64,000 nt of DNA from Spirochaetia bacterium (GTDB lineage: Bacteria > Spirochaetota > Spirochaetia > DSM-2461): the NCBI GenBank assembly GCA_963666985.2, contig CAXXIA010000002.1, positions 2,272,001 through 2,336,000 on the forward strand, written 5' to 3'. The notes under the pieces are model-generated. The model was not told the origin of the DNA and ran no database searches. It worked only from the letters and a program-made list of their open reading frames with translations. A program made the position numbers and the translations under genes. Positions 10,667-36,836 of the stretch are shown piece after piece; position 1 is the first letter of the stretch; each line of letters starts with the position of its first letter.

Positions 10667-12697
10667 TCAGAGAGCCAAAGCCGCCTCGTACGCGGCCCTG
10701 ACGGCTTCAAGCATGTTTCTCCTGCCGGAAGATCCTCCGATGACAGATACCTTTTCGCTGTTTATGGTAAGAAGTTCATTAAGATGGTCTTCTTGAGGAA
10801 GAAACCGAGTTTCCACCACAGCGTCGGCGGGGATTTCCATTTGAGATCCGTCTTCCGCCATAACATCGGCCGATCCGCGGCGAATCCGAAGTATGCGATG
10901 CTTCGTCAGAATTTTCACTCCGAGCTGATCCAATCGAGCTTTGTAAACCCATCGGCTGCTGGGACTGATATGTTCTCCCGTTCCGGAACCTTCCTCAACG
11001 ATGGTAATGTCGCTGCAAACGTCCGTAAGGAGATTCGCCGTCAATTCGGGGCTTTCCGCCTGAAAGAGCGTAAGAAAGTGAAATTGCTCGGCATTCAGCG
11101 CTCCTCGGCCGGCCAGCTTAAGGGCCGTCCAGACTCCCGGAGAATCGCCTCCGGCGATCAGAATTCGCCGCCCGGCAACGGACCGGTCCCGCAGAACATC
11201 GGCGGCGTGGATTACGGGAATGCTTCCGTCCGTCTCCAAATCCGATTCGGCCGCGATATCTCCGGCGGCCAGTACCACCCGGTCGAATTCTCCGGCATTT
11301 AAAGCTTCTCCGACGATTTCCGCAGTCGCCGGTTTTTCGGTGAAAATTGGGATTCGGTGGTTTCTGCAGGAACGGATCAGCCAAGAGATGTACTCGGCGA
11401 TATTTTTTCGTTCCCGAATTCCTGCGGCAAGAAGCGCCTGGCCGCCCAACGTGGAATCCCGTTCCCAGACTGTTGGCCTGTGTCCTCGGGATGCGGCGAT
11501 GAGGGCGTATTCCAGTCCCGCGACTCCTCCGCCGATAACCAGGACGGACTGCGGCGGCCGCTTCGATATTTCGTCGTCGGTGATTTCAGGAAATTCGGAT
11601 TCCCGACCGGCTTCCGGATTCACCAGGTAGGAAATGGTCTTTCCGTAGAAAATCCGGTCCATGCAGCCCTGGTTGCAGCCGATACAGGGACGAATTTCTT
11701 TATAGCGGCCCGAGGCGGCTTTCTTCGGGAAATCGGGATCGGCCAGGAAACTTCTGGCAAAGCCGATGAAATCGACCGAACCGGAATCCACGAGTTCTTC
11801 GGCCGTTTTCGGAGTCATTCTGTTGGAGAGAATAACCGGGATTTTTACGGCCTGTTTAATTCTTTTTTCCTGATAGGCAAGAAATCCGTTGGGGACGTCC
11901 ATGGTAAGCTGCGGAACGCCGCTCTCATGCCATCCGCCCGTAATGCCGAGGGCGTCCGCGCCGAAAGTTTCCAATGCGGATGCAATCCGGAGAGATTCCT
12001 CGGATGTGTTTCCGCCCTTCATGAAGTCGTTGGCCCCCATGCGAACGATGAGAGGGAATTCCTCTCCGGCGGTTTTTCGAACCTCGGCGATGATTTCCCT
12101 GAGAAAGGTCAGGCGATTTTCCAACTCCCCTCCGTATCGGTCACCGCGGAGATTGGTCAGGGGAGAGAGAAATTGAGCGGGAAGATACCCCGATGCCGCG
12201 GTGATTTCCACCCCGTCGAAGCCCGCCTGCAGGGCCCGCCGCGCGGCGGCTCCGTAATACCCGATAATGTCGCCGATTTCATCCTCCGTCAGTTCACGGG
12301 GTGTTTCCCGAGTGAATCGGGACGGAACCGCCGATGGGGCAACCGCGACCTGACCTCCGTATTCGGCGGAACGGGCATAACGTCCGGCATGGAAAAGCTG
12401 GAGAAAGCCGCGGCAGTCATATTCGTGAAGAACGTCCGCGAGACGCTTCAGTCCCGGAATAAAGCGATCGTCGTATACCCCGATGACATTATGGGTGTTG
12501 ATTCGAAGCGGATCGATACCGGAGGCTCCTACGATGAGAAGCCCGCATCCGCCGGCGGCCCGGCGGCGGAAATATTCCAGAAGCGTCGGATTCACTTTTC
12601 CGTCATCGCTTAACGCGGTGTGCATCGCCGTCATCAGAATGCGGTTTTTTATTCTCAATCCGCCGATTTGTCCCGGTGTATAGAGATTGGACAACAT
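10667..12697 (-). CDS. NADH:flavin oxidoreductase, 2,4-dienoyl-CoA reductase (FadH)-like OYE
   Basis: AGFDGVE, QFLSP, NLRGDRYGG, GGWHE (FadH-type), CIGCNQGC, GGGVAG Rossmann motif. Start taken at MLSNL after the SD GGAGG. Confidence 0.88.
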   Translation of the reverse strand: MLSNLYTPGQIGGLRIKNRILMTAMHTALSDDGKVNPTLLEYFRRRAAGGCGLLIVGASGIDPLRINTHNVIGVYDDRFIPGLKRLADVLHEYDCRGFLQLFHAGRYARSAEYGGQVAVAPSAVPSRFTRETPRELTEDEIGDIIGYYGAAARRALQAGFDGVEITAASGYLPAQFLSPLTNLRGDRYGGELENRLTFLREIIAEVRKTAGEEFPLIVRMGANDFMKGGNTSEESLRIASALETFGADALGITGGWHESGVPQLTMDVPNGFLAYQEKRIKQAVKIPVILSNRMTPKTAEELVDSGSVDFIGFARSFLADPDFPKKAASGRYKEIRPCIGCNQGCMDRIFYGKTISYLVNPEAGRESEFPEITDDEISKRPPQSVLVIGGGVAGLEYALIAASRGHRPTVWERDSTLGGQALLAAGIRERKNIAEYISWLIRSCRNHRIPIFTEKPATAEIVGEALNAGEFDRVVLAAGDIAAESDLETDGSIPVIHAADVLRDRSVAGRRILIAGGDSPGVWTALKLAGRGALNAEQFHFLTLFQAESPELTANLLTDVCSDITIVEEGSGTGEHISPSSRWVYKARLDQLGVKILTKHRILRIRRGSADVMAEDGSQMEIPADAVVETRFLPQEDHLNELLTINSEKVSVIGGSSGRRNMLEAVRAAYEAALAL

Positions 12698-12811
12698 AGC
12701 TCCTCCCTTTGCATAGCGGTACTCATTCACGAAGCTGAAAAGACAATCGGGAAAATCCTTTTCTTCTTACAAACCGCCGACGATTAACTATGAATTATAT
12801 ACGTGAGGTGA

Positions 12812-12870
12812 TTTCAAAAAACGTTGATTTTTGAAACAAAACCCTTCTAAAACAAAACCGGAAGGATTTC
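12812..12870. repeat. Double-hairpin intergenic element, copy 1
   Basis: TTCAAAAAACG..TTTTTGAA followed by CCTTC..GAAGG; a similar copy lies at 14897-14945. Confidence 0.5.
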
Positions 12871-12935: not shown

Positions 12936-13697
12936 TCAGTAAAGAGTCGTCCCGTGATCCACGTAAAGAATCTGACCGGTTATCGCCTTGGAAGCATCAC
13001 TGGCGAAAAAGAGGATGGCTTCGGCCTGATCTTCAACATGAGCTTCGGGAACGGAAAGGTCGATATGTTTGGCGCAGGCGTCGGCGAATTCCTTATTAAA
13101 TGTTTTAAACGCTTCGGGAGCATTCAGCGGAGTGGGTGTTGGGCCGGGGGCTACGGCGTTGCAGCGAATGGCCGTGGGGGAGTATTGAAGAGCGATGTTC
13201 TTCGTCATGCTGTTCACGGCGGCCTTCGCGGCGCTGTAGGAAATCCCCGCCAAACCCTGGCTTCCGATGGAAGAAATGTTCACGATGGAACCTTCTCCGG
13301 CCTTGGTCATGTGTTCCAGGGCGTATTTGCTCATGTAATAGACCGAATACTGATCGATCTTGCAGACGGTGTCGTACCATTCTTCGGTGCAGAGATCGAT
13401 GGGCATGTGCTTGTCGGCGATTCCCGCATTATTCACCAGAACATCGATGCGTCCGTATTTTTCAATGGCCGCATCGACGATTTTATGACAGTCTTCCGAT
13501 TTGGAGACATCCGCCCGCACCGCGATTCCTTCGCCGCCGAGAGCTTCGACTTCAGCCAGAACTTTTTTGTTCTCTTCATCGCGTCTTCCGCAAAGGACGA
13601 CTTTAGCCCCTTCCTTTGCGAACAATTTGGCCGTTGCGCGACCGATGCCGGAATTGCCGCCGGTAATAATGGCGATTTTATTTTCCAATCTTCCCAT
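12936..13697 (-). CDS. Short-chain dehydrogenase/reductase (classical SDR)
   Basis: TGGNSGIG, NNAG, NISS and YSAAK motifs. Start taken at MGRLENK. Confidence 0.93.
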   Translation of the reverse strand: MGRLENKIAIITGGNSGIGRATAKLFAKEGAKVVLCGRRDEENKKVLAEVEALGGEGIAVRADVSKSEDCHKIVDAAIEKYGRIDVLVNNAGIADKHMPIDLCTEEWYDTVCKIDQYSVYYMSKYALEHMTKAGEGSIVNISSIGSQGLAGISYSAAKAAVNSMTKNIALQYSPTAIRCNAVAPGPTPTPLNAPEAFKTFNKEFADACAKHIDLSVPEAHVEDQAEAILFFASDASKAITGQILYVDHGTTLY

Positions 13698-13887
13698 GCT
13701 GTTAAACCTCATTTAATGTAAATTGATATAAATGTATTATATTGGGTGTCCAATTCGACGGACCTATCATTTTTCGACATACCGATATCGTTTTTTGTTA
13801 TGCATCTTGCGGGCTGGAATTTCATCTTCTATCGTAACATCAGATTAATATACGCGATTCAAAACGAATCGGGAGGTTTTATTATTT

Positions 13888-14883
13888 ATGATTAAAGCTA
13901 ATTACGAATCTGATGCCGGCAAGAGGAAGGAAATCTCTCACGAAGAGCTTTACACGATTCCCCACATGCCCTTCGAAGAGTATTCCGAGAAGTTGAAAGA
14001 CTGTATCAAGATGACGAGAAAAAACGGCATTCTTGAAGCAAGAATGCATACCAACGGCGGACCCGTTCAGTGGGGAGCCGAACTTCATCAGGGCCTTCAC
14101 TACTTTTTTGACTGGGCCGGCCGGGACCCCGATAACGAGGTTATCATCCTTGGCGGAATCGGCCCCGATACCTTCAAGGGAATCGGCCGTATCAATAAGA
14201 AAACCGGCGAGTGGATGCCCGCCCGCGAGTTCGGATCCGAACCTGAAGAATCCTGGAAAATGTACGAGTACCAGTACTATGACGGTACCAACGATATTGA
14301 AGGACAGGTCTTCGATCTTGAAGTTCCTACCATCGGCGTATGGACCGGTGCTTCCTACCATACCGACCTGCTTCTTTTCAGCGATATCACCCTGGCCACC
14401 GCGGATGCGTGGACGACCGAAATGCACTTCCGGACGAACATGGTTCCCGGAGACGGCATCCAGATTGCCTGGCGGGAACTCATGGGCCGCAAGCGCTTTG
14501 CGTACGCCGAGCTTACCGGTCAAATCATCACCGCCAAGAAAGCTCTTGAATACGGGATGATCAATGAAATCTGCGATGATGTCGATGCCGCTTACAAACG
14601 AGCTTGGGAAATCGCCGAACTCATCATGCATGCCGCCGGCCGTGTTACCAGAAGAATGACCACTCAGGTTTTGAGAATGCCTTGGAAAGAGGATATTTCC
14701 AAAGAGCTCAGAAGCAGTTTCGCTACCGAGATGTTTGTTACCGCGACCGATCATTCTCCCCATGAGGCCAAATACTGGGACGATGCTCACGAAGAAGCCG
14801 CGCTCGTTATGGAAGCCGAGAAACAGGGCAAGGTTGTTCGGCCGAAAATCGGCGGCGGCCAGTTTGAAAAAGAAATTAAATAA
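13888..14883 (+). CDS. Crotonase-superfamily beta-diketone hydrolase (6-oxocamphor hydrolase CamK-like)
   Basis: ILEARMHTNGGPVQW..ELH, MHFRTNMVPGDG (His/Asp dyad position), LTGQIITAKKALEYGMINE match CamK-type segments as I recall them. Confidence 0.75.
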   Translation: MIKANYESDAGKRKEISHEELYTIPHMPFEEYSEKLKDCIKMTRKNGILEARMHTNGGPVQWGAELHQGLHYFFDWAGRDPDNEVIILGGIGPDTFKGIGRINKKTGEWMPAREFGSEPEESWKMYEYQYYDGTNDIEGQVFDLEVPTIGVWTGASYHTDLLLFSDITLATADAWTTEMHFRTNMVPGDGIQIAWRELMGRKRFAYAELTGQIITAKKALEYGMINEICDDVDAAYKRAWEIAELIMHAAGRVTRRMTTQVLRMPWKEDISKELRSSFATEMFVTATDHSPHEAKYWDDAHEEAALVMEAEKQGKVVRPKIGGGQFEKEIK

Positions 14884-15082: not shown

Positions 15083-16846
15083 ATGTCACGAAGAGCCATT
15101 CATTTGAACGTCCTTACCGTGCCGTCGTTCGCTGTTGTTTCTCTTGTCCCTTTTGGAATACTCGTTTTGATGCGGACAGGATCTTTTTTCGAATCCAGCT
15201 TCTTTCTTAAAGAGCCGGTTTACGGATTTCTTTTCGCGGCCGCCGTTTCACTTCTCATCGGCATCGCGGCAGGGTTGATTTATTCGCGATGCATTTCCCG
15301 CGGCTTGCACCGTGTTGAAAGGCTGGTGGAAGAGGCCGGAAAAAACGAGGCCGGAGAATATGCGAAAACAGTATCCCGTATTGGTGAGATTTCCTCCGTG
15401 GCGCGGAGCCTTCGGGGGAAATTGCTGCCGAGGCTGGCGAAAGTGTTCAATGAAATAGGAAATGCCGTGACGCTGAACTCAAAGACTTCGATTGTCGCTA
15501 AGGATTACGCCGGTGATGTTTGGAACATTGCCGACGGAATCTCGCGTGATGTCGGCGGGATTCTTCAAGAAATGTCGGAATTGAAGAATCAGATCGTCAA
15601 TTCTTCATCGGCCGTAGCCGAAATCCAGGCCACTCTGGAAGCATTGATGGGGCATATGAACAGCCAGGACGGGGCTTTGTCCCGGACTTCGCTTTCCGTC
15701 AGACGCATGGATGCTTCCCTTACCGATATATCCGAGGTTTATACGGAGCAGTCCGTTTCCACCGATTCGCTGCTCGGCACCTTGGATGAGGGGAAAAAGG
15801 CCGTTGCCGAATCAAACGAGTGTATCCGCGAGATTTCCGTAAATATCGACGATATGATGAGCATTATCGGTGTAATCAACAGTATCGCGGATCAAACGAA
15901 TCTGTTGGCTATGAACGCCGCCATAGAAGCGGCTCACGCGGGAACCGCCGGCAAAGGTTTTTCCGTTGTGGCCGATGAAATCAGAAAACTCGCCGAATCC
16001 ACAGCCGAAAACTCCCATGTTATTTCATCTTCGCTGACGGCGGTCAACGGTAAAATGAGCCGCGTTCTTCATTCCGGAAAAGAAAGTGAGAAATCTTTCT
16101 CGGACGTAACGGAGAAAGTTTCTGATTTCGTGGCCGCGTTTAAGCGCATCGCCGAGAGCACGGCGGATATTTCCGCGGGAAGCCGCGAAATCTTGTCTTC
16201 CGTTGAACGGCTCAACGCGATGTCCGGCGAGATAACCGCCGGATCGTCCGAAATCACCCAGAGCGCTCATGAGATAAACGATGCCATGAGTAAGGTTCAG
16301 GATTCCTATAATCGGGTAACGGACGAAGTCGCCGTGGTTAATTCCCGCGCTCAAGACATCGGTAAGGCGCAGCGGGATCTGATGAAGATTATCGATTGGG
16401 ATTCGAAGAATATCGCCGAAATCGGCAAGAGTCTCAATACATGTAATTTCGGTTCTTTCGGTGAAACGGTCGGTGAAACAGATATTGCCGATGCCATCGG
16501 CGATATCATGCTGACGATGCTGGCGCGGGTGGAGAATGCGGGAGATTCCATTCGGAGTCTTACTGTTGCCGAAATGAATATTAAGATTGATGTCGATGAT
16601 GTGCGGAACAGCGAAAACTGCGGCGTCGGGCGCTGGCTTTCGGGCGAGGGAGCCCGCCTTTTGGGCTCGTTTCCCGGGTTTGACGAGATTGTCGCGGATC
16701 ATAAGCATTTTCACGAAAGCATTGTTCAAACGGCTTCCAAGATAGAAAACGCAACCTTTAATGAGGCGTTCGCTTCGTTCCGAGTCGCGAGAGGCTATTA
16801 TAATAGGCTGATAACCGGCTTTATCGACATTATTGATCATCTTTGA
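15083..16846 (+). CDS. Methyl-accepting chemotaxis protein with C-terminal CZB-like domain
   Basis: Two N-terminal TM segments; [33 protein letters not shown] signalling tip; C-terminal CGVGRW...HKHFH. Confidence 0.9.
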
Positions 16847-16862
16847 AAAGAACGGAAAAATT

Positions 16863-18026
16863 ATGACGCATACCGGTCGAGAGAAACTGTGGACCGGGCA
16901 GTTTATCCTTATTTTAACGGCGAATTTCACCGCTTTGATGGTGAACGCCCTGCTTCTTGTCTCAATACCGCTTTATTTAAGGGCGATGGGAGCTTCCAAT
17001 ACGGCGGCCGGACTGTCGACCGGTCTGTATTCTCTGGCCGCGATGACTCTGAGGCCGATCGTCGGGCATTTTCTTGATTATCGGGGAAGAATCCGGCTGA
17101 TGAGAGGCGGCTTGATTCCCATGATTGTCGGCATCATCCTTTCGAATTTTACCGATGCCGTTCCTCTGCATTTGGCCCTTCGCGTTCTTGAGGGAATCGG
17201 TTTTTCCGTTGTATCCACCGCGGGAGCGACGATCGTTTCGGACTTGGTGCCGGAATCAAGAATAACCGAGGGCATAGGATACAACGGCGCGGTGGCGACT
17301 CTTACCAACGCCGTCGGACCTCTTGTCGGTCTTGTTCTAATCGACGGATTCGGATTTGCCGTTCTTTTCACCTGTCTGATTCCGATGTCGCTGCTTCCTC
17401 TTGCCGTTTCTTTGTTCTTGAAGGAGAGCGTCAATCCCTCCGCGGCATCCGGAGAACGGACCGGATTGAAGCATCTTTTTGATTTGGAAAAAGGAGCATT
17501 GCCGGCTTCTGCCATGATGATTTTTTCCGCCGTATCTTACGGGGCCGTTGTAACATTTCTGGCGGCATTTGGAATGGAACGGGGAGTGGAAAACATGCAG
17601 TTCTTTTTTGTTCTGTTTCCGTGTACGGTGGTTGTTTCCCGCTTTTTTTCCGGCAGGCTTATCGACGGATACGGATATTTGCCGGTTGTTGTTCCTTCCC
17701 TTATCATCGGAGCGTCTTCCCTTGTTCTTATTTTCTTTGCCCGCACCGTGGCGATGTTTTCTCTTGTCGCCGTTTTATACGGATTGGGGTACGGCATTCT
17801 GATGCCGGCCTTTAATGCGCTCGCCGTACGGAATTCATCTCCGAACCGCCGGGGAGCCGCGAACGCCACGTTCTACATCGCGTTGGATTTGGGAATCGGC
17901 GGAGGCGCGATTTTTCTGGGATTGTTTTCAAATTGCTGGGGTTTGGCTTCAACTTTTCTTATTTCGGCGTTCTTCATGATTTTCAGCTTCGCCCTTTTTC
18001 CGTTTCTTGAGCGGAAGCGGCGCTGA
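16863..18026 (+). CDS. MFS transporter
   Basis: About 12 hydrophobic segments, motif A (GHFLDYRGR), RVLEGIG, RRGAANATF. Confidence 0.9.
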   Translation: MTHTGREKLWTGQFILILTANFTALMVNALLLVSIPLYLRAMGASNTAAGLSTGLYSLAAMTLRPIVGHFLDYRGRIRLMRGGLIPMIVGIILSNFTDAVPLHLALRVLEGIGFSVVSTAGATIVSDLVPESRITEGIGYNGAVATLTNAVGPLVGLVLIDGFGFAVLFTCLIPMSLLPLAVSLFLKESVNPSAASGERTGLKHLFDLEKGALPASAMMIFSAVSYGAVVTFLAAFGMERGVENMQFFFVLFPCTVVVSRFFSGRLIDGYGYLPVVVPSLIIGASSLVLIFFARTVAMFSLVAVLYGLGYGILMPAFNALAVRNSSPNRRGAANATFYIALDLGIGGGAIFLGLFSNCWGLASTFLISAFFMIFSFALFPFLERKRR

Positions 18027-24806: not shown

Positions 24807-25064
24807 TCCGATGCATCAAAGCGGCAAGCCGTGCTGAGGCTTGCCGCCGTTATTGAGAAGGACGGAACCATGCTGATAAAAACGATTCTTTCTTGCGCCG
24901 ATGCCGAGGGCGGAGCTTCCGGCGGTTGGGCCTTTCCGTGACGTTTTTAATGGTTCCGAGAAAAGGCGCGGCCGAGGCTGCGGGAAAAAGGACGGCCGAA
25001 GGCGGCGCCGCCGAAGATGAAAGAAATCAGCCGGTTTGAAAGAACCGGCAGGGAAGTGATTATT

Positions 25065-27539: not shown

Positions 27540-27579
27540 GCCGGCCGTGCGGCCGCGAGCCGCAGCGGCCGGTTTTTTT
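27540..27579 (+). terminator. Rho-independent terminator of the BKACE-hbd operon
   Basis: CCGGCCG-TGCGGC..GCCGCA-G-CGGCCGG stem followed by T7; a second hairpin lies at 27504-27524. Confidence 0.75.
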
Positions 27580-27688: not shown

Positions 27689-29203
27689 TTGTTTCGATTG
27701 AATGATAAGGGGAAGTGGACGAATCGATATAAAGCTCTCGGAAGCATCATCGCTGTGTTGGGGGTAGCCGGTATTGCGGGTGTTGTTACCGGAATAATCG
27801 GCCCCGGCGAAACCGGAAATGTTCCGACGGTGGTTTTCGGCGCTTTAACGGCGATTCTCGCCGCCGGCGCTTTATTGCTGCTGATTGAATATCGTAAACT
27901 CGGTTCCCGGGCCCGGGAGCTTGCCAGAAAAGTTAATCTCCACCCCGATATCTCATCCAAACAGGCTTTCTCGGATCTTGACGATGAAATCGGCCGACTC
28001 AATCTCATCGACAGGGACCATTACTTTATCCGGCTGATGAAGGATAGAAGTTCGGATCATCGTCCCATTCTCAAGGAATTGACTTTCTACGGTGTCGATT
28101 TTCCTTATGAGGGATTCATCCTTGTTTCTTTTAATGCCTGCCGCCAGCAGGCAATGAATCCTCCGCAAAACATCAGGACGCGGGATTATCTTGTTCGGGA
28201 TGTTCTTGAAAGGACGCTGCCCGAGGATTTTGTTTCGTATGTTCTGGATTTGGAAGATCTTTATATCTGTCTGTTCAACGTTCCCTATGAAGCGGAGCCC
28301 GCGGGTGTCCGAAAAATAAAGAAAGAAATGGAGGTTTATGCCCTTCGTGTCATAAAGAGGATTGATGAAAGTTTTGACCTTCACACAAGTGCTTCAGTTA
28401 GTGAGCTCCACCGGGGTTTGGAGTCACTTCCGGATGCTTTTCTTGAAGTTCAGGGATTATTTAAATACAGAAACATTACCGGCAACAACGCTTCGGTTCT
28501 GCATTATATGGCTTACTATATCAGCTTCGAGAGCTGGTATGAGTTCGGCAGCACGTATAATAAATTCGACGAAGTTCGTCAGCTGATCACCAGTATTCAG
28601 GTTGGAGACTTTGCGAATGCCAAATTGCTTATCAATGATTTATTCGAGAACGACTACTCCCGCAAATATCCTACGCTGATTCTTGCCCGCTGCAGGCTCT
28701 ACGGCGTTATCGATGCGGCCATCAATGCCATGGGACTATTGAAGGAAGAACTTGACGAGGATTTCTTAAGAGAACTGAATCCGGCAACACGGATTGTAAA
28801 CTGCAATACGTATACCGAGCTTCAGGCGGAACTTGATTCCATTTTTGACGCCATAATCGAATACTATTCCCGGAAGAAGAAGGACAGTCCCCCCGAATGG
28901 TTCGAGACCATTCAGACGTATATTGATAAACACTACAACGACATGGACATCAACGTGGCGACGATTGCGGATCATTTTAAGATCAGTTCGGCCTATTATG
29001 CCCGTGTCTTCAAGAAATACACGGGGATGTCGCCTCTGGATTATATTCATAAGCTCAGAATGCGCAGCGCGAAGCGGCTGATGGGAAAAGGCGTGAGCGT
29101 CAAAGACGCCGCCACCATCGTCGGATACGGCAGTCCCATTACGATGAGCCGTGCTTTTAAGCGTTATGAAGGCGTTACTCCGGGAAGCTACATCAAACGC
29201 TAG
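27689..29203 (+). CDS. AraC-family regulator with two N-terminal transmembrane helices
   Basis: Two hydrophobic stretches joined by a short loop; C-terminal IADHF..AYYARVFKKYTG..YI..LR..AK..VGY..F AraC HTH. Start uncertain (TTG). Confidence 0.85.
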   Translation: MFRLNDKGKWTNRYKALGSIIAVLGVAGIAGVVTGIIGPGETGNVPTVVFGALTAILAAGALLLLIEYRKLGSRARELARKVNLHPDISSKQAFSDLDDEIGRLNLIDRDHYFIRLMKDRSSDHRPILKELTFYGVDFPYEGFILVSFNACRQQAMNPPQNIRTRDYLVRDVLERTLPEDFVSYVLDLEDLYICLFNVPYEAEPAGVRKIKKEMEVYALRVIKRIDESFDLHTSASVSELHRGLESLPDAFLEVQGLFKYRNITGNNASVLHYMAYYISFESWYEFGSTYNKFDEVRQLITSIQVGDFANAKLLINDLFENDYSRKYPTLILARCRLYGVIDAAINAMGLLKEELDEDFLRELNPATRIVNCNTYTELQAELDSIFDAIIEYYSRKKKDSPPEWFETIQTYIDKHYNDMDINVATIADHFKISSAYYARVFKKYTGMSPLDYIHKLRMRSAKRLMGKGVSVKDAATIVGYGSPITMSRAFKRYEGVTPGSYIKR

Positions 29204-29297: not shown

Positions 29298-31394
29298 GTG
29301 TTGGACGAAATTGTATTGAGCATCGACGGCGTCGAAGTGCCATCACGGAAAGGCCAAAGCATTCTTGATGCGTCCTTGGAAGCCGGAATTTATATTCCTC
29401 ATATTTGTTCTCATCCCGATTTGTCCTCTCAGGGCGAATGCAAGCTTTGCGTGGTGGAAGTCGACGGAGAAACGAAACTCTCGTGTCGGACCGAAGTTCG
29501 GCAGGGTCTGTCGGTTACGACGAAGTCGGATCATCTGCAGCATCTGCGTGTTACGGCGCTGGAACTGATGCTGGCCGGTCATCCTCATGACTGTACGTCC
29601 TGCGTGGTGTATCTCAACTGCGAGCTCCAGGCGATGATGCAGTATCTGGGAGCCGTTCATGCCCGGATGCGGAGTGTTCACAAGAAGAATAACGCGGTTA
29701 ATACGAGAAACCCCATTATCATCCGTGAATTGGAGCGGTGCATTCAGTGCGGACGATGCGTTCGGGCCTGCGAAGAGCTTCGCGGCGTCGGAATTCTTGA
29801 ATACCGAAACAGAGACGGTGAAAGCTACATCGGAACGGCGGACGACAAGCCTTTTATGGAAGCGGATTGCCGGTTTTGCGGGGCCTGTATCGCCGTTTGC
29901 CCGACCGGCGCCCTCAGAATGGATACAAAACTCAGTTCCGAGGCCGTGCCCTGCCGTTCGGAATGCCCCGCTCACGTGGATATCCCCCGTTATGTCCGTT
30001 TCGTGAAGGAAGGCCGTTACGGCGAGGCCGCTGCCGTTGTGCGGGAAAAGGCGCCGCTGCCGCTTTCTCTCGGCTATGTCTGCAGTCATCCCTGCGAAGA
30101 GGTCTGCCGCCGGGAAGAGTTGAATCGGGCCGTTTCCATACGTGAAATCAAGCGTTTCGCCGCCGAGAACGATACGCGGGGATTCTGGAAAGAACACCAT
30201 GTGAAAAAGAGCCCGACCGGAAAAAAAGCCGCGATTATCGGCAGCGGCGCGGCCGGTCTGACGGCGGCCTATTATTTAAGTACGGCCGGACACGATGTGA
30301 CGATTTTTGAACGGCTTCCGGTTGCGGGCGGCATGATGTCCACCGGAATCCCCGAGTATCGTCTGCCGAGAAATGTCGTTCAATCCGAAATCGATGTTAT
30401 TCTTGAAAATGGCGCCCGGCTGGTTACATCGCGGAATATTGAAACGGTTGATGAGCTTTTTAACGAAGGCTTCGATGCCGTTTTGGTTGCCGTCGGCGCT
30501 TCGGTCGGTAAAAAACTCGGTTTCCCCGGTGCGGAGAACGAACAAGTTTATTCCGCCGTTGATGTTCTTCGGGCGGCATCTCTGGGAGAAAAAGTTGCTC
30601 TGGGCAATCGCGTAACCGTTCTCGGCGGAGGGAATGTGGCTTTTGATGCGGCCCGTGTCTGTGTTCGCCTCGGCGTGGAAGAGGTGAATCTTGTCTGCCT
30701 GGAACCCGAGGGGGGGATGCTGGCCGATGAAGAAGAAATCATTCAGGGAAAGGAAGAAGGCATCAACATTCTTAATTCCAAAACGACTTTGGAACTTGAA
30801 ACCGAAAACGGGAACCTGAAAGGTGTTCGGGTTATTGATGTGGCGGAATTTTCCTTCGGTCCGGGAGGAAAACTCGATTTAAAAACCGTGGAAGGTTCGG
30901 AAACCCTGATTCCTTCCGATACGGTGATTTTCGCGGTCGGCCAGAAAACGGACTTGTCGGATGATTTCGGCGTTGAATTAACGCCGTTCGGATATGCGCA
31001 AGTCGCCGAAGGTGCGTTCGCCGCAAGCCGGGAAGGCGTTTTTGCCGCCGGCGATGCCGTTACCGGAACAAAATTCGTTATTTCGGCCATAGCCGGCGGC
31101 CGGAGCGCCGCGGCGGAAATGGATCAGTTCCTGGGCGGAACGGGAGAGATCGACGAGGTGCTGGCTCCTGTTGAAATCCCCGATGGAAAAATCGGAATAC
31201 TCGAAGGTTTTTCCGCATTGCGGCGGGAAGATGTTGATTATATCGGAGCGGACGAACGGAAGGCGGGATTCGCAGAAATCAGCTGCGGCTATGATGAATG
31301 CCGGGCTCGCGATGAAGCTTCGCGATGTCTTCAGTGTGATTTGCGTCTGAATATATCAAAAACCAAGTTATGGACGGACTATATCAAGACATGA
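29298..31394 (+). CDS. Fe-S flavoprotein: NuoG/HydA-type N-terminal cluster module fused to a GltD-like NAD(P)H oxidoreductase
   Basis: IPHIC..CKLC..SC ([2Fe-2S]), HPHDCTSC..C, CIQCGRCVRAC, CRFCGACIAVCP, then PCRSECP, VCSHPCE..C, GSGAAG, GIPEYRLP, GGGNVA, GD. Start is GTG 29298 or TTG 29301. Confidence 0.85.
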   Translation: MLDEIVLSIDGVEVPSRKGQSILDASLEAGIYIPHICSHPDLSSQGECKLCVVEVDGETKLSCRTEVRQGLSVTTKSDHLQHLRVTALELMLAGHPHDCTSCVVYLNCELQAMMQYLGAVHARMRSVHKKNNAVNTRNPIIIRELERCIQCGRCVRACEELRGVGILEYRNRDGESYIGTADDKPFMEADCRFCGACIAVCPTGALRMDTKLSSEAVPCRSECPAHVDIPRYVRFVKEGRYGEAAAVVREKAPLPLSLGYVCSHPCEEVCRREELNRAVSIREIKRFAAENDTRGFWKEHHVKKSPTGKKAAIIGSGAAGLTAAYYLSTAGHDVTIFERLPVAGGMMSTGIPEYRLPRNVVQSEIDVILENGARLVTSRNIETVDELFNEGFDAVLVAVGASVGKKLGFPGAENEQVYSAVDVLRAASLGEKVALGNRVTVLGGGNVAFDAARVCVRLGVEEVNLVCLEPEGGMLADEEEIIQGKEEGINILNSKTTLELETENGNLKGVRVIDVAEFSFGPGGKLDLKTVEGSETLIPSDTVIFAVGQKTDLSDDFGVELTPFGYAQVAEGAFAASREGVFAAGDAVTGTKFVISAIAGGRSAAAEMDQFLGGTGEIDEVLAPVEIPDGKIGILEGFSALRREDVDYIGADERKAGFAEISCGYDECRARDEASRCLQCDLRLNISKTKLWTDYIKT

Positions 31395-32032
31395 TTCAGT
31401 GCGAGAAAGAAAAAATCGATTTACCCGATACATCGGAAATCCTCGAAAAGGCCGAAACGGTTTGTCCGGTGGATTGGGCCCTTGCCGTCGCGGATAAAGC
31501 ACGGCGGGAATCCTGCGGGAAATGCGTCATGTGCCGGGAAGGAACTCTTCAGCTGTATACGATCATTTCCGACATCGTGAGCGGTAAAGGTGAATCGGAC
31601 GATCCGGATTTAATCCTCGATTTGTGCGGAGTAATCGGGGAGGCGGCCGATTGTGAAATGGCCCGAGAGGCATCATCGCTGATTCGATTGTCTTTGGAAA
31701 CGCACAGAGACGATTGGAACGCGCATATTCTGCGCAAGCGCTGCCCCGCTCTGGTTTGTTCCGCGTATATCACCATCGCCGTTAAGCCCGATCTCTGTAA
31801 AGGTTCCGGAGAGTGTGCCAAGGTTTGTCCGGAAAATGCCATAGCCGGTTCCGAGGGATTGATTCATGTGGTGGATGCGGCCCTCTGTACGCGGTGCGGG
31901 GCCTGTATCGAGGCGTGTCCCCATGGAGCGGTGGGAAAATTCGGAGTCGTTGTTCCGAAAACACCGGATAAACCTGTTCCGGTCGGTTCTTTCGAGGGGG
32001 CTCCCGCGGGACGCCGAAGGCGGCGGGGGTAA
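31391..32032 (+). CDS. NuoF/HydB C-terminal [4Fe-4S] domain plus dicluster ferredoxin-type domain
   Basis: ESCGKCVMCREG..C, then CKGSGECAKVCP and CTRCGACIEACP. ATGA overlap with the upstream gene. Confidence 0.85.
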   Translation: MIQCEKEKIDLPDTSEILEKAETVCPVDWALAVADKARRESCGKCVMCREGTLQLYTIISDIVSGKGESDDPDLILDLCGVIGEAADCEMAREASSLIRLSLETHRDDWNAHILRKRCPALVCSAYITIAVKPDLCKGSGECAKVCPENAIAGSEGLIHVVDAALCTRCGACIEACPHGAVGKFGVVVPKTPDKPVPVGSFEGAPAGRRRRRG

Positions 32033-32150: not shown

Positions 32151-33668
32151 ATGAAGATGGAAGCAGATGTCGTCGTTATCGCCGCAGGAGCCTCCGGCAT
32201 CGCCGCGGCGGTAGCCGCCGCGGAAAAAGAGGCCAGTGTCGTTGTTTTTGAAAAAGGAAGCACCACAGGCGGCGCCGCCAGCATGGGAATGGGCTTCTTC
32301 GCGGTTGAATCGAAATATCAGAAGAATCAAATGATTCCCCTCACGGTGGACGAAGCCTTTAAAACATTCATGGAATATACCCATTGGCAGGTTGACGGCC
32401 GTCTGGTGCGCAAGTACTTCGGTCAATCGGCCGGCACCGTCGAATGGGTGGAAAGCATGGGCGTGGAATTCCTGGGTGCCTATAAGTATTTCAAGGATTC
32501 CCTCCAAACATGGCATGTCATCAAAGCGTTCGGCAGCAATAGGCCTTCCGAGCGCGGAGCCTCGGTTATGTTCAAAGCCCTGACCGACAGGGCCGTGGAA
32601 TTGGGTGTGGAAATCAAATTCCACACTCCGGCCCATAAGATTCTGACCAATCCCGATACCGGCCGGGTAACCGGTGTTCTGGCCAAAGACGCCGACGGTA
32701 ACGAGATTGAATGCGAGTGCGATACCGTTATCGTCTGCACAGGCGGTTTCGGAGACAATCCGAAGCTGATTAAGGATAAGATCGGTTTTGATTGGGGAAA
32801 GGATCTTTTCTCCTTCCGTATCCCCGGAAACGTGGGCGACGGCCTGAACATGATGTGGAACATCGGCGGCGGAAAAACACCGGTCAATATCGAAATGACC
32901 TACAACAGCCCCGGACTGACCGACATTTTCAAAACCCTGAGCGAAACCATGCGTCAGCCCAACCTTCTGGTGAACCTGGAAGGAAAGAGATTCTGCAACG
33001 AAGAAATCATGAACAACACAACCTTTACGGGAAATGCCGTCAGCCGGCAGACTCAGAGAAAGGGCTTCACGATTATCACCGATGAGATTCTTGATGATTA
33101 CCGAAAGAACGGTCTGGATTTCATTACCGTGCACCACAACATTAAAACCGTGGACAAATGGGACGAGGAACTGAAAACATACCTGAGCGGCGAGAAAGCC
33201 GAAGCCTCGGGACTCAGCCTTCTTCATGACGAGGAAGAGAATGAATCGGTTCTTTGGGAAGCCGACAGTCTTGAAGAACTGTGTGAAAAAACCGGTATCA
33301 ATCTTAAGAATCTGAAAGCCACCATCGAGGAATACAATTCTTATGCCGGTACCCGGGATATGCAGTTCAACAAGCATCCCAAATACATGCGGGCCATCAA
33401 GGGGAAGAAATTCTACGCCGTGGCCCACAGGCCCTGCGGATACGGAACTCTCGGCGGCATCAAAGTGAATGACGATCTTCAGGTTCTCCGCGACGACGGG
33501 AGTCCGATTCCCGGACTCTATTCCGCCGGAACCGACGCCTGTAATATTTTCGGCGACAGCTACTGTTTCATCATGCCGGGAAACACCATGGGCTGGGCGA
33601 TCAATTCCGGAAGAATGGCCGGATACAACGCCGTAGATTATCTCGATTCCGATGATTTTGTAGAGTAG
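32151..33668 (+). CDS. FAD-dependent oxidoreductase, flavocytochrome c / fumarate reductase / 3-ketosteroid dehydrogenase superfamily
   Basis: DVVVIAAGASG, EK..TTGG, CTGGFG, GDG, VNLEGKRFCNE, GTLGGI, IPGLYSAG, WAINSGRMAG. Confidence 0.88.
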   Translation: MKMEADVVVIAAGASGIAAAVAAAEKEASVVVFEKGSTTGGAASMGMGFFAVESKYQKNQMIPLTVDEAFKTFMEYTHWQVDGRLVRKYFGQSAGTVEWVESMGVEFLGAYKYFKDSLQTWHVIKAFGSNRPSERGASVMFKALTDRAVELGVEIKFHTPAHKILTNPDTGRVTGVLAKDADGNEIECECDTVIVCTGGFGDNPKLIKDKIGFDWGKDLFSFRIPGNVGDGLNMMWNIGGGKTPVNIEMTYNSPGLTDIFKTLSETMRQPNLLVNLEGKRFCNEEIMNNTTFTGNAVSRQTQRKGFTIITDEILDDYRKNGLDFITVHHNIKTVDKWDEELKTYLSGEKAEASGLSLLHDEEENESVLWEADSLEELCEKTGINLKNLKATIEEYNSYAGTRDMQFNKHPKYMRAIKGKKFYAVAHRPCGYGTLGGIKVNDDLQVLRDDGSPIPGLYSAGTDACNIFGDSYCFIMPGNTMGWAINSGRMAGYNAVDYLDSDDFVE

Positions 33669-33676
33669 GAACGCTG

Positions 33677-35611
33677 ATGAAAGCATACCGCTATCCCAAT
33701 CTTCTGAAGCCCATCAAGATAGGAAAAGTGACATTCCGGAATCGGATTTTCACCGCGCCGACGGGTCTGCACGCCGTTCAGGCGGAAGAACCGTATCCCA
33801 CCGAAGCGGCCATCGTTCATTTCGCCAACAGGGCCAAGGGCGGCGCAGGCTGTGTTACCTGCGGCGGCGTCAGTATTTTCCCCAGGAAAAAAGACGACGG
33901 TCACGCCACTTGGGATGTGTATGAGAAGTCGAATGTCCATGTCTTGGCCCAGTTGGCCGAGAGTATTCATTTCCACGGCGCCAAGGCTTCCATGGAGCTC
34001 GGAGTGGCGGGAGTCGTCGGCGGTGAGTACGGCGCCAGCGACGGCATTATTCTCATGGCGGGAAATCCCGCCAAGGAAATGCCCGTATCCGAAATGAATC
34101 GGATTGCCGACGGCTATGCCGCGTCCGCCTCCGGCTGCAGGGCCGCCGGATTCGACATGATTATGCTCCATTTCGGTCACGGGCTCCTGGTGGGGCAATT
34201 CATCTCTCCGCTGACCAACCGCCGAACCGACGAATACGGGGGAAGCGCCGAGAACCGCGCCCGATTCCCGATGATGATTATCGATCGGATTCGGGAGAAA
34301 GTCGGCCGGGATCTGCTGATCGAAGTCCGCATCAGCGGAGCCGAACACGTCCCCGGCGGGATTACAATTGAGGATGCCATTGAATTCACGAAGCTGATCG
34401 AGGATAAGGTGGACCTTATTCACGTGTCCGCCGGTGTTCACAATCCGGACTATATGACCGTGGTGCATCCCTGCGGATTCCGTCCGCATATGCCCAATCT
34501 TCCTTTGGCCGAAGCCATGAAAAAATCGGGAGTGAAAATCCCCGTGGTAACGATCGGCGGTATCCAGGAACTCGGCAGCGCCGAGGCCGCATTGGCCGAC
34601 GGCAAGGCGGATATCGTCTCCGTCGCCCGCGGATTCATCGCGGATACGAATTTGGGCAACAAAGCCTACCGCGGCGAGGGTGAGGATGTGCGGCCCTGCA
34701 TCAAGTGCATGCGGTGCCATGACAGCGTTGTTTGGGAATATCACTATTCCTGTACGGTGAACCCGGAAATCGGATTCGAACATCGGCTTCCGCTGTTGGT
34801 GGAACCGCCCAAAGCGAAAAGGAATATCGCCGTCGTCGGCGGAGGTCCCGCCGGAATGCAGGCGGTTCTGACGCTGATTTCCAGGGGACATGAGGTAACT
34901 CTTTATGAAGCCGAAGATGTTCTCGGCGGAACCTTGAACTTTTCCGAAAAGGTCGATTTTAAAAGGGATTTAAGGCGCTATAAAGATTACATGGCGGACC
35001 GGGTTCTTCAATCCGGCGCGACCGTGAAGCTGAACACCCGCGTCGACGCGAAATTTTTGAACGCCGCGGGTCATGATGTGGTTATCGGAGCCTTGGGATC
35101 GTCTCCTCTTGTTCCTCCCATCCCCGGTATCGATAATGACCATGTGGTTATGGCGCTGGATTCCTATGGTGCCGAAGATCGGCTCGGGGACGAGGTTCTC
35201 GTATTGGGAGGCGGACAGGTCGGCAGTGAGACGGCCCTCCATCTTGCCCGCATGGGTAGAAAGGTAACCTTGCTGGAAATGAGAAGCGGTATTGTTCTGG
35301 ACGCTTCCGAAACCCACAAGGGAGAGATGATCTTTGAAATTAAAAACAATGAGAATATTACCGTTTTAACCTCGGCCCGCTGTACTTCCATCGGTAAGGA
35401 TTCGGTTACGTATGCCGATGCGGAAGGAGAGGAGAAAACCGTCTTCGCGCCGAGCGTTATTGTCGCCGTTGGAATGGTTTCCGCCGAAAAGGATGCCGAA
35501 GCCTTAAGGCAGGCTCTTGATTGCGAGTTTTATTCCATAGGTGATTGTCAAAGGGTCGGAACCGTGGAGAGCGCCACAAAGAGCGCTTACTATTTGGCGG
35601 TCCGACTTTAA
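33677..35611 (+). CDS. NADH:flavin oxidoreductase (OYE + [4Fe-4S] + FAD; BaiCD/H-like architecture)
   Basis: AGFDMIMLHFGHG, QFISP, NRRTDEYGGS, CIKCMRC..CTVNP, GGGPAG, GGGQVGSE. Confidence 0.9.
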   Translation: MKAYRYPNLLKPIKIGKVTFRNRIFTAPTGLHAVQAEEPYPTEAAIVHFANRAKGGAGCVTCGGVSIFPRKKDDGHATWDVYEKSNVHVLAQLAESIHFHGAKASMELGVAGVVGGEYGASDGIILMAGNPAKEMPVSEMNRIADGYAASASGCRAAGFDMIMLHFGHGLLVGQFISPLTNRRTDEYGGSAENRARFPMMIIDRIREKVGRDLLIEVRISGAEHVPGGITIEDAIEFTKLIEDKVDLIHVSAGVHNPDYMTVVHPCGFRPHMPNLPLAEAMKKSGVKIPVVTIGGIQELGSAEAALADGKADIVSVARGFIADTNLGNKAYRGEGEDVRPCIKCMRCHDSVVWEYHYSCTVNPEIGFEHRLPLLVEPPKAKRNIAVVGGGPAGMQAVLTLISRGHEVTLYEAEDVLGGTLNFSEKVDFKRDLRRYKDYMADRVLQSGATVKLNTRVDAKFLNAAGHDVVIGALGSSPLVPPIPGIDNDHVVMALDSYGAEDRLGDEVLVLGGGQVGSETALHLARMGRKVTLLEMRSGIVLDASETHKGEMIFEIKNNENITVLTSARCTSIGKDSVTYADAEGEEKTVFAPSVIVAVGMVSAEKDAEALRQALDCEFYSIGDCQRVGTVESATKSAYYLAVRL

Positions 35612-35633
35612 TAGAAGAAGGAGTTTTATTAGT

Positions 35634-36836
35634 ATGATATCTCAATCACGCCGGGGCTGGATTGTGCTCTGGGCGGCGGTGATCCTTAATTTTTTCATCG
35701 GTCTGGGGTATATCTGGAGCATTATCGCCAAGCAGCTTATTGAACAGCTGCATTGGACGAGCGTTCAGGCATCCCTTCCGTATACCGTTTTTTCCATTAT
35801 GTTCGCCGTTTCCATGATGCTTTCGGGCCCCATCCAAGATAGAAAAGGACCGCGTTTCAGCTCGACGCTCGGCGGTCTTCTGATCGGCGGCGGACTTATT
35901 CTTACCGGATTCGCCCTGAAGCCTTCCCTGATGGTTCTGACTTTCGGACTGATCACCGGAACCGGTTTGGGCTCGATGTATTCCGCGACGGTTCCGCCGG
36001 CTTTGAAGTGGTTCCCGCCCGAGAAGAAAGGCACCATTAACGGAGCTATCGTGGCGGTTTTGGCTTTGGCGTCCATTATGTATTCTCCCGTTGCCAAGAC
36101 GCTCATGGAGAATATGGGCATCGCTCCCACCTTCTGGATTATAGGCGGAGTGCTTATTGTTATTCTTACAGGGACTTCACAGCTGCTCTGTAATCCTCCC
36201 GAAGGGTATCAATTCGCTTCCGAATCCGGATCGCCGGCCGCCGTTACCGCCGTTGTGGAGCAGGGACCGCGGGAAATGCTCAAAAGCGGCGACTTCTATA
36301 AGATTTGGTTCATGTTCGCCCTTTCCGCGTCTTCCAGTCTCATGGTTGTCGGGCATATCGCGAACATTGCCAAGAGTCAGGCCGGCTGGAACGGCGGGTT
36401 CATCCTGGTGATTCTTCTGGCGCTGTGCAACGGCGCCGGTCGCTTTTTTCTCGGCGGATATCTTTCCGACAAACTGGGCCGCGGAAATCTGATGCGGCTG
36501 ACGTTTATTCTTCAGGCCGTCAACATGCTCCTGTTCATGTTCTACAGAAGTCCGCTTCTGCTGATTATCGGCGTCGCCGTGGCCGGACTGTGCTACGGCT
36601 CCACGATGGTTGTCTTCTCGGCGGCCACCGCGGATAAATGGGGCATGAAGAACTTCGGCGCGAATTACGGAATCGTCTTCATGGCCTGGGGACTCGCCGG
36701 GGTTGTCGGGCCTTTGCCGAGTGCGTTCATCTTCGACGCAACCGGCAGCTATACGGGCGCCTTTTTGATCTCCGGCGTTCTGGTGATTGTCTCTTTGATT
36801 CTGGCTTTTACCTATAAAGCATCCGATAAAGGTTAA
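35634..36836 (+). CDS. MFS transporter, oxalate:formate antiporter (OFA)/monocarboxylate type
   Basis: GLGYIWS, GPIQDRKGPR, KWFP..KG, NGAGR, SDKLGR, FGANYG. Confidence 0.88.
   Translation: MISQSRRGWIVLWAAVILNFFIGLGYIWSIIAKQLIEQLHWTSVQASLPYTVFSIMFAVSMMLSGPIQDRKGPRFSSTLGGLLIGGGLILTGFALKPSLMVLTFGLITGTGLGSMYSATVPPALKWFPPEKKGTINGAIVAVLALASIMYSPVAKTLMENMGIAPTFWIIGGVLIVILTGTSQLLCNPPEGYQFASESGSPAAVTAVVEQGPREMLKSGDFYKIWFMFALSASSSLMVVGHIANIAKSQAGWNGGFILVILLALCNGAGRFFLGGYLSDKLGRGNLMRLTFILQAVNMLLFMFYRSPLLLIIGVAVAGLCYGSTMVVFSAATADKWGMKNFGANYGIVFMAWGLAGVVGPLPSAFIFDATGSYTGAFLISGVLVIVSLILAFTYKASDKG

Follow-up and report, generated by a model that had tools for sequence, protein, structure and literature searches.

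Catechins are the units of tea, cocoa and bark tannins, and phenyl-valerolactones are major human polyphenol metabolites. In humans, ~42% of epicatechin taken by mouth ends up as five-carbon ring-fission products. According to the accessible part of PMC11887054, the gut bacterium Flavonifractor plautii degrades the catechin A-ring after C-ring cleavage and, together with Eggerthella lenta, forms (S)- and (R)-4-hydroxy-5-arylvalerate from (+)-catechin and (-)-epicatechin; a 2026 review called the A-ring enzymes unassigned. For phloroglucinol, the Clostridium scatologenes pathway comprises PGR, DPGC, TfD and TAL, with a cyclase-family enzyme as the ring opener (PMC10470551, accessible part). Here we describe a gene block at positions 10667-36836 of a 64,000-nucleotide stretch (the window) of contig CAXXIA010000002.1 from a Spirochaetia bacterium (assembly GCA_963666985.2), in which a beta-diketone hydrolase, a BKACE, a thiolase and two AbfD-like dehydratases lie together. 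The pathway it encodes is real, conserved and uncharacterised; each protein family is known, and the whole is a variant of BKACE-type phloroglucinol catabolism. The cluster probably ferments flavan-3-ols (catechin, epicatechin, or C-ring-opened diarylpropan-2-ols) to 3-arylpropionate and acetate, a reading based on gene content, families, conserved residues, synteny and co-occurrence, from which the substrate and every reaction given below are predicted.

All 19 genes listed in the initial annotation of the block are intact open reading frames (ORF list; families by NCBIfam/Pfam; Table 1), two on the minus strand (those for the OYE/FadH-family enzyme OYE1 and a short-chain dehydrogenase/reductase [SDR]) and 17 on the plus strand, from the hydrolase gene through that of the second MFS carrier. 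The genes from BKACE to the 3-hydroxyacyl-CoA dehydrogenase Hbd form a single tight run, with short gaps or overlaps, and a strong terminator-like hairpin (27550-27571) lies just after it. The G+C content of the block (0.49-0.55) resembles that of the left flank, and the source assembly (4.86 Mb) is 93% complete, its closest named homologues (89-92%) pointing to a spirochete; a promoter scan was uninformative (14 sites versus 15.8 expected). Counterparts of 18 of the 19 genes stand in matching order in Spirochaeta sp. UBA5339, at 43-92% identity, which argues that the block is more than a chance assemblage. The UBA5339 version has a single AbfD and one additional MFS, and is immediately preceded by AtoB/AtoD/AtoA and a further OYE; the flanking genes for PccB, aldehyde dehydrogenase, an aminotransferase and LacI fall outside the syntenic segment. 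Rearranged versions occur in loci L007, L010/L050 and L046. A close BKACE (E<=1e-110) was present in none of 40 relatives, 13 of them of the same genus, and a search of 400 further genomes from the phylum gave no hydrolase match (E<=1e-20), so the cluster is accessory.

Neighbourhood co-occurrence, proposed earlier as a check, was assessed by scanning species genomes for the hydrolase, which yielded 73 loci; a few of these share a genome, and 51 span at least 18 kb. Neighbours were counted within ~10 kb of the hydrolase, with BKACE, thiolase and SDR taken at >=50% identity. BKACE was the most constant (48/73 loci), followed by AtoD (40/73) and by the thiolase, AtoA and a shared MFS (39/73 each); BKACE and thiolase were both present in 38/73 (32/51 long loci), and most loci had two thiolases, one ~60% and the other ~42% identical to that of the window. 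An SDR orthologue was found in 23 loci, and an aromatic-type porin and a periplasmic flavocytochrome in 16 each; PTE-family lactonase-like genes and thioesterases are further additions. The constant unit is thus the hydrolase, BKACE, a special thiolase and acetoacetate disposal, with the SDR, the OYEs and the dehydratases optional. This core (hydrolase, BKACE, thiolase and acetoacetate CoA-transferase) is also seen in Pasteurellaceae, Brenneria, Alphaproteobacteria and Actinomycetota, with named hosts that include koala and rodent gut Pasteurellaceae and tree-associated Brenneria/Acerihabitans. The SDR was absent at E<=1e-45 from Brenneria rubrifaciens, Sodalis RH21, Kosakonia sacchari and F. 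plautii, and present in Rhodopseudomonas palustris.

BKACE enzymes convert a free 3-oxo acid to acetoacetate and an acyl-CoA. Because the BKACE needs such an acid from the ring hydrolase, the ring should carry oxygen at positions 1, 3 and 5; because there is a second, dedicated thiolase, it should be substituted, plain phloroglucinol giving acetoacetyl-CoA, for which an ordinary thiolase is enough. A ring with substituent R would yield R-CH2-CO-CoA after BKACE and thiolase, which is a 4-hydroxyacyl-CoA exactly if R = CH2-CH(OH)-X. In C-ring-opened catechin R is CH2-CH(OH)-CH2-aryl, and the product is 4-hydroxy-5-arylvaleryl-CoA, the thioester of a known gut metabolite. Deduced from the known reactions of BKACE and thiolase, then, a substrate for the combination of hydrolase, BKACE, non-AtoB thiolase and 4-hydroxyacyl-CoA dehydratase has to be a phloroglucinol ring with a CH2-CH(OH)-R side chain. 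The initial annotation had envisaged a single anaerobic catabolic pathway in which a C-C bond of a ring is hydrolysed and radical-type dehydration and beta-oxidation follow. Our analysis supports this, as it does the polyphenol among the substrates guessed. Its worked examples did not hold: cyclopentane-1,3-dione (to a 4-oxo acid) and dihydroresorcinol (to 5-oxohexanoate) yield no 3-oxo acid and leave BKACE idle, and the cluster has no acyl-CoA dehydrogenase with which a 3-oxo acid could be made from 5-oxohexanoate. A route from a cyclic enone or 1,3-dione, by ring opening, to a 4- or 5-oxo acid and on through SDR, Buk/Ptb, AbfD and beta-oxidation, with levulinate entering midway, does provide a plausible order for the SDR, OYEs, Buk/Ptb, AbfD, crotonase, Hbd and thiolase, and the loss of a dehydratase glutamate (E455 to Ala; see below) could free space for a methyl or ethyl group at C4. 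Yet such a route treats as central the SDR and AbfD, which are dispensable parts, and gives no role to BKACE and AtoDA, the most constant neighbours; we regard it as highly improbable.

The proposed flavan-3-ol route would start with a flavin reductase that cuts the C-ring benzyl ether to give 1-aryl-3-(2,4,6-trihydroxyphenyl)propan-2-ol (step 1); the FAD_binding_2 protein, supplied with electrons by the Fe-S/GltD pair, is the likeliest enzyme for this. The hydrolase would then cut the A-ring bond beside the substituted carbon, producing HOOC-CH2-CO-CH2-CO-CH2-CH2-CH(OH)-CH2-Ar (step 2), either directly on the triketo tautomer, as favoured for window-type enzymes, or through a reduce/hydrolyse/re-oxidise loop, as favoured for the Firmicutes versions. 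BKACE with acetyl-CoA would release acetoacetate and 6-hydroxy-3-oxo-7-arylheptanoyl-CoA (step 3), and the thiolase acetyl-CoA and 4-hydroxy-5-arylvaleryl-CoA (step 4), whose hydroxyl would be the flavan-3-ol C3-OH; organisms ending here would release the hydroxy acid or the gamma-valerolactone. The AbfD variants, perhaps one per enantiomer, would dehydrate this thioester, and crotonase, Hbd and thiolase would complete its conversion to 3-arylpropionyl-CoA and acetyl-CoA, with Ptb/Buk yielding ATP (step 5). Acetoacetate would be disposed of via AtoDA/AtoB, encoded elsewhere in the source genome (step 6). The net reaction, catechin + 4 H2O to 3-(3,4-dihydroxyphenyl)propionate + 3 acetate (C15H14O6 + 4 H2O = C9H10O4 + 3 C2H4O2), is redox balanced because the NADH from Hbd pays for step 1; since the sum balances without outside electrons, no acyl-CoA dehydrogenase is needed. 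The order given earlier, with ketoreduction and Buk/Ptb activation before dehydration, is thereby changed: the 4-hydroxyacyl-CoA would come from the thiolase, and Ptb/Buk would serve mainly for ATP at the end.

The predicted ring opener resembles 6-oxocamphor hydrolase (OCH; 1o8u) in sequence (E 1e-29, versus 2.7e-9 for the next hydratase; PDB search) and in predicted fold (pLDDT 78.5; Z 31.6 and root mean square deviation 2.0 over 245 residues, the next match being an enoyl-CoA hydratase at Z 27.7). The functional OCH residues W40, H45, H122 and the H145/D154 dyad align with W62, H67, H158, H180 and D189, and H67, H158, H180 and D189 are invariant in 10/10 hydrolase rows. The alignment stops at OCH residue 241, before E244, so that E281, invariant in the 10 rows, is only a candidate counterpart. 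By modelled fold and sequence, the protein appears to be of the type of OCH and the Anabaena beta-diketone hydrolase (ABDH) rather than an enoyl-CoA hydratase, with predicted CoA-independent retro-Claisen activity. The hydrolases fall into several subfamilies. A second window-type copy (72%) lies alone among unrelated genes at C2:2261421-2262410, ~10 kb before the window, and a third paralogue, of another subfamily (40%), at C2:528897; paired paralogues also occur in L007, L010/L050, L011/L052, L055/L062 and Flavonifractor, where each might be dedicated to one enantiomer or one type of B-ring. Beside the hydrolase of loci L033, L036, L037, L066 and L068, from deltaproteobacteria and Chloroflexota, an HMGL-like enzyme replaces BKACE, mostly with a second hydrolase and sometimes with a molybdenum (Mo) enzyme, a pairing that probably marks another downstream route.

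Whether the ring must be reduced before hydrolysis can be approached through gene content. No cyclase-family (PF04199) ring hydrolase was found in the window (Pfam), and a PGR-type SDR or TfD-type dehydrogenase was likewise absent there, the SDR being 29% identical to the PGR-like P0251 and Hbd 32% to the HAD-like P0252, used as proxies for the characterised PGR and TfD sequences. Five genomes with window-type hydrolases (Lonepinella koalarum, B. rubrifaciens, Sodalis RH21, R. palustris BisB18 and Spirochaeta UBA5339) lack PGR-like and HAD-like orthologues (best matches 28-31% and 33-37%, respectively, or none); the cyclase was absent in 4/4 of those tested, and the window SDR is likewise missing from three enterobacteria. 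The simplest reading is that the triketo tautomer is hydrolysed directly, and, provided that the flavan-3-ol reading holds, we consider its chances about even, the alternative being redox by nonhomologous enzymes. For Firmicutes, the HAD-like and often PGR-like genes in the blocks suggest a reduce/hydrolyse/re-oxidise sequence.

The BKACE scored 360 bits against PF05853 (gathering cut-off 24.8), below the cut-offs of Kce and the other named BKACE models (NCBIfam); it did not reach the lysine-fermentation-type model (328.6 versus 382 bits), and the block has no lysine-fermentation genes. In trees of 35, 36 and 30 rows selected from 87 distinct sequences, a cyclase-linked BKACE of the source genome, a proxy for TAL, fell outside the clade of the window enzyme. 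F. plautii has eight full BKACE genes and one fragment; among those included (seven in one tree, six in another), the hydrolase-linked copy, 57% identical to the window BKACE, alone joined this clade, in an inner group (100/99) with Brenneria, Tolumonas, R. palustris and Telmatospirillum.

Many Oscillospiraceae hydrolase genes are clustered with those for BKACE, thiolase, a HAD-like dehydrogenase, MFS and either AtoAD or Buk/Ptb, often with a PGR-like SDR or a PTE-family lactonase-like gene. One Flavonifractor block encodes proteins identical to EHM41172.1 and EHM41173.1 of F. plautii ATCC 29863, which we take to be the DSM 4000 strain of the PMC11887054 work. The F. plautii block comprises BKACE, two tandem hydrolases, thiolase, AtoA, AtoD, MFS, HAD, DUF362, MFS and a LysR-type regulator, with no SDR within it. 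The F. plautii enzyme emerged from a family-wide genome search, and there was no Flavonifractor-named entry among the top 120 matches to window-type hydrolases. The AbfD of F. plautii is only 39% identical and canonical, which together with the lack of the FAD reductase fits a strain that needs E. lenta for the C-ring and stops at the C5 acid. The DUF362 protein is a fixed member of F. plautii-type blocks where the PGR-like SDR is missing (L185:903-2183, L166:2594-3871), making it a candidate ring reductase. Flavonifractor-type hydrolases are also present in Coprococcus catus (P0439, a cluster of 1764 members), a candidate further human-gut A-ring degrader, and in Vescimonas coprocola (P0276).

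The same chemistry could serve another phloroglucinol, either unsubstituted, in which case the route would do without a cyclase and triacetyl-CoA would be the substrate of the extra thiolase, or acyl- or alkyl-substituted (dihydrochalcone, plant beta-triketone), with the AbfD tail handling a separate 4-hydroxy acid. The minimal core (hydrolase, BKACE, thiolase, AtoDA, AtoB and MFS) fits triacetate or another polyketo acid too; of the 38 loci that combine BKACE with thiolase, 25 lack a neighbouring SDR or HAD; and the hydrolases form several subfamilies. Against this, the source genome has, ~400 kb away at C2:2690-2708 kb (L184), a separate, canonical-looking trihydroxybenzene locus of the cyclase type. 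It encodes two Mo enzymes resembling pyrogallol transhydroxylase, PGR-like SDR, cyclase, HAD, BKACE, thiolase, AtoDA and a TRAP transporter, a polyphenol gene set by which plain phloroglucinol and trihydroxybenzenes are already served. F. plautii also has its own cyclase, 41% identical to that of the source genome, and is reported to carry a canonical phloroglucinol cluster (PMC10470551, accessible part). With BKACE present, plain phloroglucinol needs no second thiolase, and in two phyla the AbfD variant and the BKACE/hydrolase module are linked on the DNA. We therefore consider another phloroglucinol an unlikely substrate.

The link of the dehydratase tail to the flavan-3-ol route rests on two HpaB/AbfD-fold proteins that are 70% identical to each other. 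Both keep the [4Fe-4S] ligands C99, C103, C299 and H292 (C98, C102, C311 and H304 in variant 1) and K300, and E257 and Y296 are kept as E264 and Y308 in variant 1. For the clostridial enzyme, T190, E257, Y296 and E455 are listed as important in the accessible part of a preprint (bioRxiv 10.1101/2020.02.05.935528); E455 is A459 and T190 is S202 in 5/5 variant rows, with E and T in two canonical-type rows, and these replacements define a distinct AbfD subfamily. The two AbfD-like dehydratases of the initial annotation are thus present with their cluster ligands, one known catalytic residue being replaced; the pair probably functions like AbfD though set apart from AbfD proper, and may take a substrate that is larger at C4. 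Among 401 Oscillospiraceae genomes, the AbfD variant was found in 34, the hydrolase in 51 and both in 26, versus 4.3 expected, counts that overstate the association, to the detriment of the proposed route, because related genomes are not independent. Crotonase, Hbd, HAD and Flavonifractor-type BKACE genes form a single run with that of the variant in L223/L224, L227 and L228, and in L223 a hydrolase 80% identical to that of F. plautii is 11 kb from the tail; four of the other five stretches show the tail with no BKACE in view, and the fifth merely extends L223. This co-occurrence with the hydrolase and adjacency to BKACE argue that the AbfD tail belongs to the pathway.

Alternatively, the block could be a mosaic whose two or three modules (ring-opening core, 4-hydroxyacyl-CoA tail and reductase block) serve different polyphenol products and are joined only by shared regulation and horizontal transfer. 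The rearranged versions noted above, the 11 OYE2-like loci and three hydrolase paralogues of the source genome, and the 8/34 AbfD-variant Oscillospiraceae genomes with no hydrolase match are in keeping with this; the order kept in UBA5339, the tight BKACE-Hbd run, the independent joining of tail and core in Oscillospiraceae and the redox balance of the combined pathway speak against it and make a mosaic improbable. "AbfD-like" proteins of 31-34% identity in Chloroflexota and deltaproteobacterial loci and at C2:522 kb of the source genome lack the Fe-S cysteines and were dropped as tail evidence; HpaB/AbfD-fold proteins of this kind near hydrolases were seen in an anaerobe (L006:3324-4814), a Chloroflexota metagenome-assembled genome (MAG) (L047:4029-5543) and a deltaproteobacterial MAG (L036:13869-15362). 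In L046 (12882-16018), acyl-CoA dehydrogenase and electron transfer flavoprotein genes follow the AbfD variant and could convert 5-arylpentenoyl-CoA to 5-arylvaleryl-CoA.

For the opening step of the flavan-3-ol route, an Fe-S/flavin redox module was recognised earlier; the FAD_binding_2 protein (32151-33668) is a separate reductase candidate and not simply a component of that module. Its best model was that of the vinylphenol reductase VprA (NF053717), at 314.2 bits below the cut-off of 600. Orthologues at 54-62% identity occur in three dehydratase-bearing Oscillospiraceae (G401, G422 and G527), and none was found (E<=1e-40) in F. plautii, L. koalarum or B. rubrifaciens. Because the two top catechin-induced E. 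lenta genes are of the same family, annotated as fumarate reductase/succinate dehydrogenase (PMC7028382, from supplement 2b), the protein could, by analogy, be the C-ring reductase; alternatively, it could reduce arylpentenoate to 5-arylvalerate, a known metabolite (PMC10516121, accessible part).

Several observations count against the flavan-3-ol reading. The AbfD variant lies near the hydrolase in only 5/73 loci, all from spirochetes, and in both window variants E455, reported as important for dehydratase activity, is Ala. The HAD-like and PGR-like genes seen in the Firmicutes blocks are missing from the window. OCH prefers nonenolisable diketones, an ill fit to direct attack on an aromatic ring. 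The window BKACE clade (21 rows) has support of 94/92, just under the tool's threshold. That the F. plautii block is the catechin locus is something we infer; the hydrolase occurs in 9/24 Flavonifractor-genus genomes, and the window and F. plautii enzymes are only 30% (hydrolases) and 39% (thiolases) identical, thus representing different subfamilies with perhaps different substrates. The hydrolase is present in just 2/20 Kosakonia-genus genomes, and among the tannin-soil metaproteome rows listed in the accessible part of PMC8084988 no BKACE row is assigned to the dominant Kosakonia MAG. In peat, catechin loss was ascribed to flavanone-type routes via free phloroglucinol, the accessible part of that report making no mention of valerolactones (PMC12203004); a term search of the catechin-peat supplements gave 0 matches.

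The same metaproteome (PMC8084988, file 6, accessible part) includes eight unique proteins from one Sporomusales scaffold detected only in tannin-amended samples: thiolase, BKACE, two dehydrogenases, an SDR, a methyl-accepting chemotaxis protein, an S-layer protein and a K00656-labelled protein. The reciprocal best match of the BKACE is in Pasteurellaceae, and there is no hydrolase row among the Sporomusales rows. We give this hint little weight: it is confounded, as the whole MAG is tannin enriched, several rows have one peptide, and the listing carries no sequences.

The features of the block are collected in Table 1. The MFS carrier at 35541-36836 is 28-31% identical to the MFS proteins of the Flavonifractor clusters. 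The source genome has 11 OYE/FadH-family (OYE2-like) flavoenzyme loci on C1 and C2, several beside TRAP transporters, which suggests a specialist in plant aromatic reduction. Elsewhere in the window, positions 1272-7263, outside the syntenic block, hold a two-component system, a class III aminotransferase and a CoA-acylating-type aldehyde dehydrogenase, likely an omega-amino-acid or taurine-type unit. A second catabolic unit of low G+C content (0.40-0.47) at 43479-51734 combines Buk and Ptb with a BKACE 39% identical to the first, and also has transporters of the SSF and CitMHS types and a PAS sigma-54 activator.

Table 1. Genes of the catabolic block, with window coordinates and predicted roles
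Feature	Position	Strand	Basis and remarks
OYE/FadH-family Fe-S flavoenzyme 1 (OYE1)	10667-12730	-	NCBIfam/Pfam; 54% orthologue at same position in Spirochaeta UBA5339; putative accessory reductase
SDR, divergent from hydrolase gene	12936-13712	-	NCBIfam/Pfam; candidate for ring reduction or side-chain carbinol redox
6-Oxocamphor-hydrolase-like beta-diketone hydrolase	13888-14883	+	PDB best match 1o8u; predicted A-ring opening
Methyl-accepting chemotaxis protein, weak C-terminal CZB match	15083-16846	+	Pfam; kept in spirochete loci L007, L008, L009, L010
MFS transporter 1	16833-18026	+	NCBIfam/Pfam; 50-54% in L008, L050
BKACE	18370-19197	+	PF05853; predicted 3,5-dioxo acid to acetoacetate + 3-oxoacyl-CoA
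Thiolase, dedicated subfamily	19213-20376	+	~60% to BKACE-adjacent thiolases, ~42% to AtoB-type
Phosphotransacylase, Ptb-like	20387-21295	+	308.8 bits, below TIGR02706 cut-off of 410.5
Butyrate-kinase-family kinase (Buk)	21295-22425	+	411.9 bits, cut-off 289.1; predicted ATP from arylacyl-phosphate, or free-acid re-activation
Enoyl-CoA hydratase (crotonase)	22334-23194	+	NCBIfam
AbfD-like FAD/[4Fe-4S] dehydratase variant 1	23211-24806	+	E455 to A459, T190 to S202
AbfD-like dehydratase variant 2	25017-26609, likely start 25065	+	Same two substitutions as variant 1
3-Hydroxyacyl-CoA dehydrogenase (Hbd)	26625-27482	+	NCBIfam
AraC-family regulator	27689-29203	+	Pfam; 59% orthologue at same position in UBA5339
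2Fe-2S/4Fe-4S GltD-like NAD(P)H oxidoreductase	29298-31394	+	NCBIfam/Pfam; predicted electron input to reductases
NuoF C-terminal 4Fe-4S domain + ferredoxin protein	31370-32032	+	Pfam
FAD_binding_2 (fumarate-reductase-like) reductase	32151-33668	+	Candidate C-ring benzyl-ether reductase or arylpentenoate reductase
OYE/FadH-family Fe-S flavoenzyme 2 (OYE2)	33677-35611	+	NCBIfam/Pfam; 62-75% in four spirochete loci
MFS monocarboxylate transporter	35541-36836	+	371.7 bits, NF049980 (L-lactate MFS) cut-off 320; predicted acid export

The initial annotation knew of no described pathway with this gene combination, and no description turned up in the literature, though a recent one in subscription journals could be missed; on catechin and Brenneria there is, by listing, apparently nothing on degradation. 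The finding names candidate genes in a cultured gut species together with a stepwise mechanism. Its most far-reaching form combines complete catechin fermentation in a single organism, a Flavonifractor counterpart (EHM41172.1, EHM41173.1 and their neighbours) as the missing human-gut phenyl-gamma-valerolactone locus, direct hydrolysis of an unreduced phloroglucinol ring with water by the window-type hydrolase, and an E455A pair as the first radical dehydratases for C4-substituted enantiomeric 4-hydroxyacyl-CoAs; this conjunction we put forward tentatively, as possible but doubtful. If true, an aromatic ring would be opened without oxygen, reductant or CoA, and hydrolase/BKACE and the AbfD variant would provide markers for valerolactone makers and for further degraders, respectively. 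The core in tree-associated, herbivore-gut, soil and marine bacteria would also bear on anoxic condensed-tannin turnover, and two enzymes promise new chemistry: one may hydrolyse an aromatic ring that has not been reduced, and the other would carry out radical dehydration in the absence of Glu455.

Among known systems, the predicted intermediates and products of the window (diarylpropanol, 4-hydroxy-5-arylvalerate, valerolactone and arylpropionate) are known metabolites of gut flavan-3-ol catabolism by E. lenta Cber/Cadh and F. plautii (PMC11887054, PMC13515148, accessible parts), where the route is split among gut species, whereas the window organism would hold it whole. With the C. scatologenes pathway, as far as its accessible description goes, the proposed route would share a retro-Claisen ring opening that yields a 3,5-dioxo-type acid, a BKACE that splits off acetoacetate and leaves an acyl-CoA, thiolase, CoA-transferase and kinase-linked ATP; the ring opener is of crotonase fold instead of an Mn2+ cyclase, and a dedicated thiolase and a 4-hydroxyacyl-CoA dehydration/beta-oxidation tail are added. 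The window hydrolase has the fold and the residues W40, H45, H122, H145 and D154 in common with OCH (CamK, 1o8u) and ABDH (2j5g), but is only ~31% identical, has 331 amino acids with an inserted loop and a C-terminal extension, and lies in an anaerobic BKACE context, whereas OCH belongs to camphor catabolism. The dehydratases share the cluster ligands and E257, Y296 and K300 with AbfD of Clostridium aminobutyricum (1u8v), from which they differ as a variant subfamily with 62-92% identity within and 36-41% to canonical-type enzymes, often encoded as tandem pairs.

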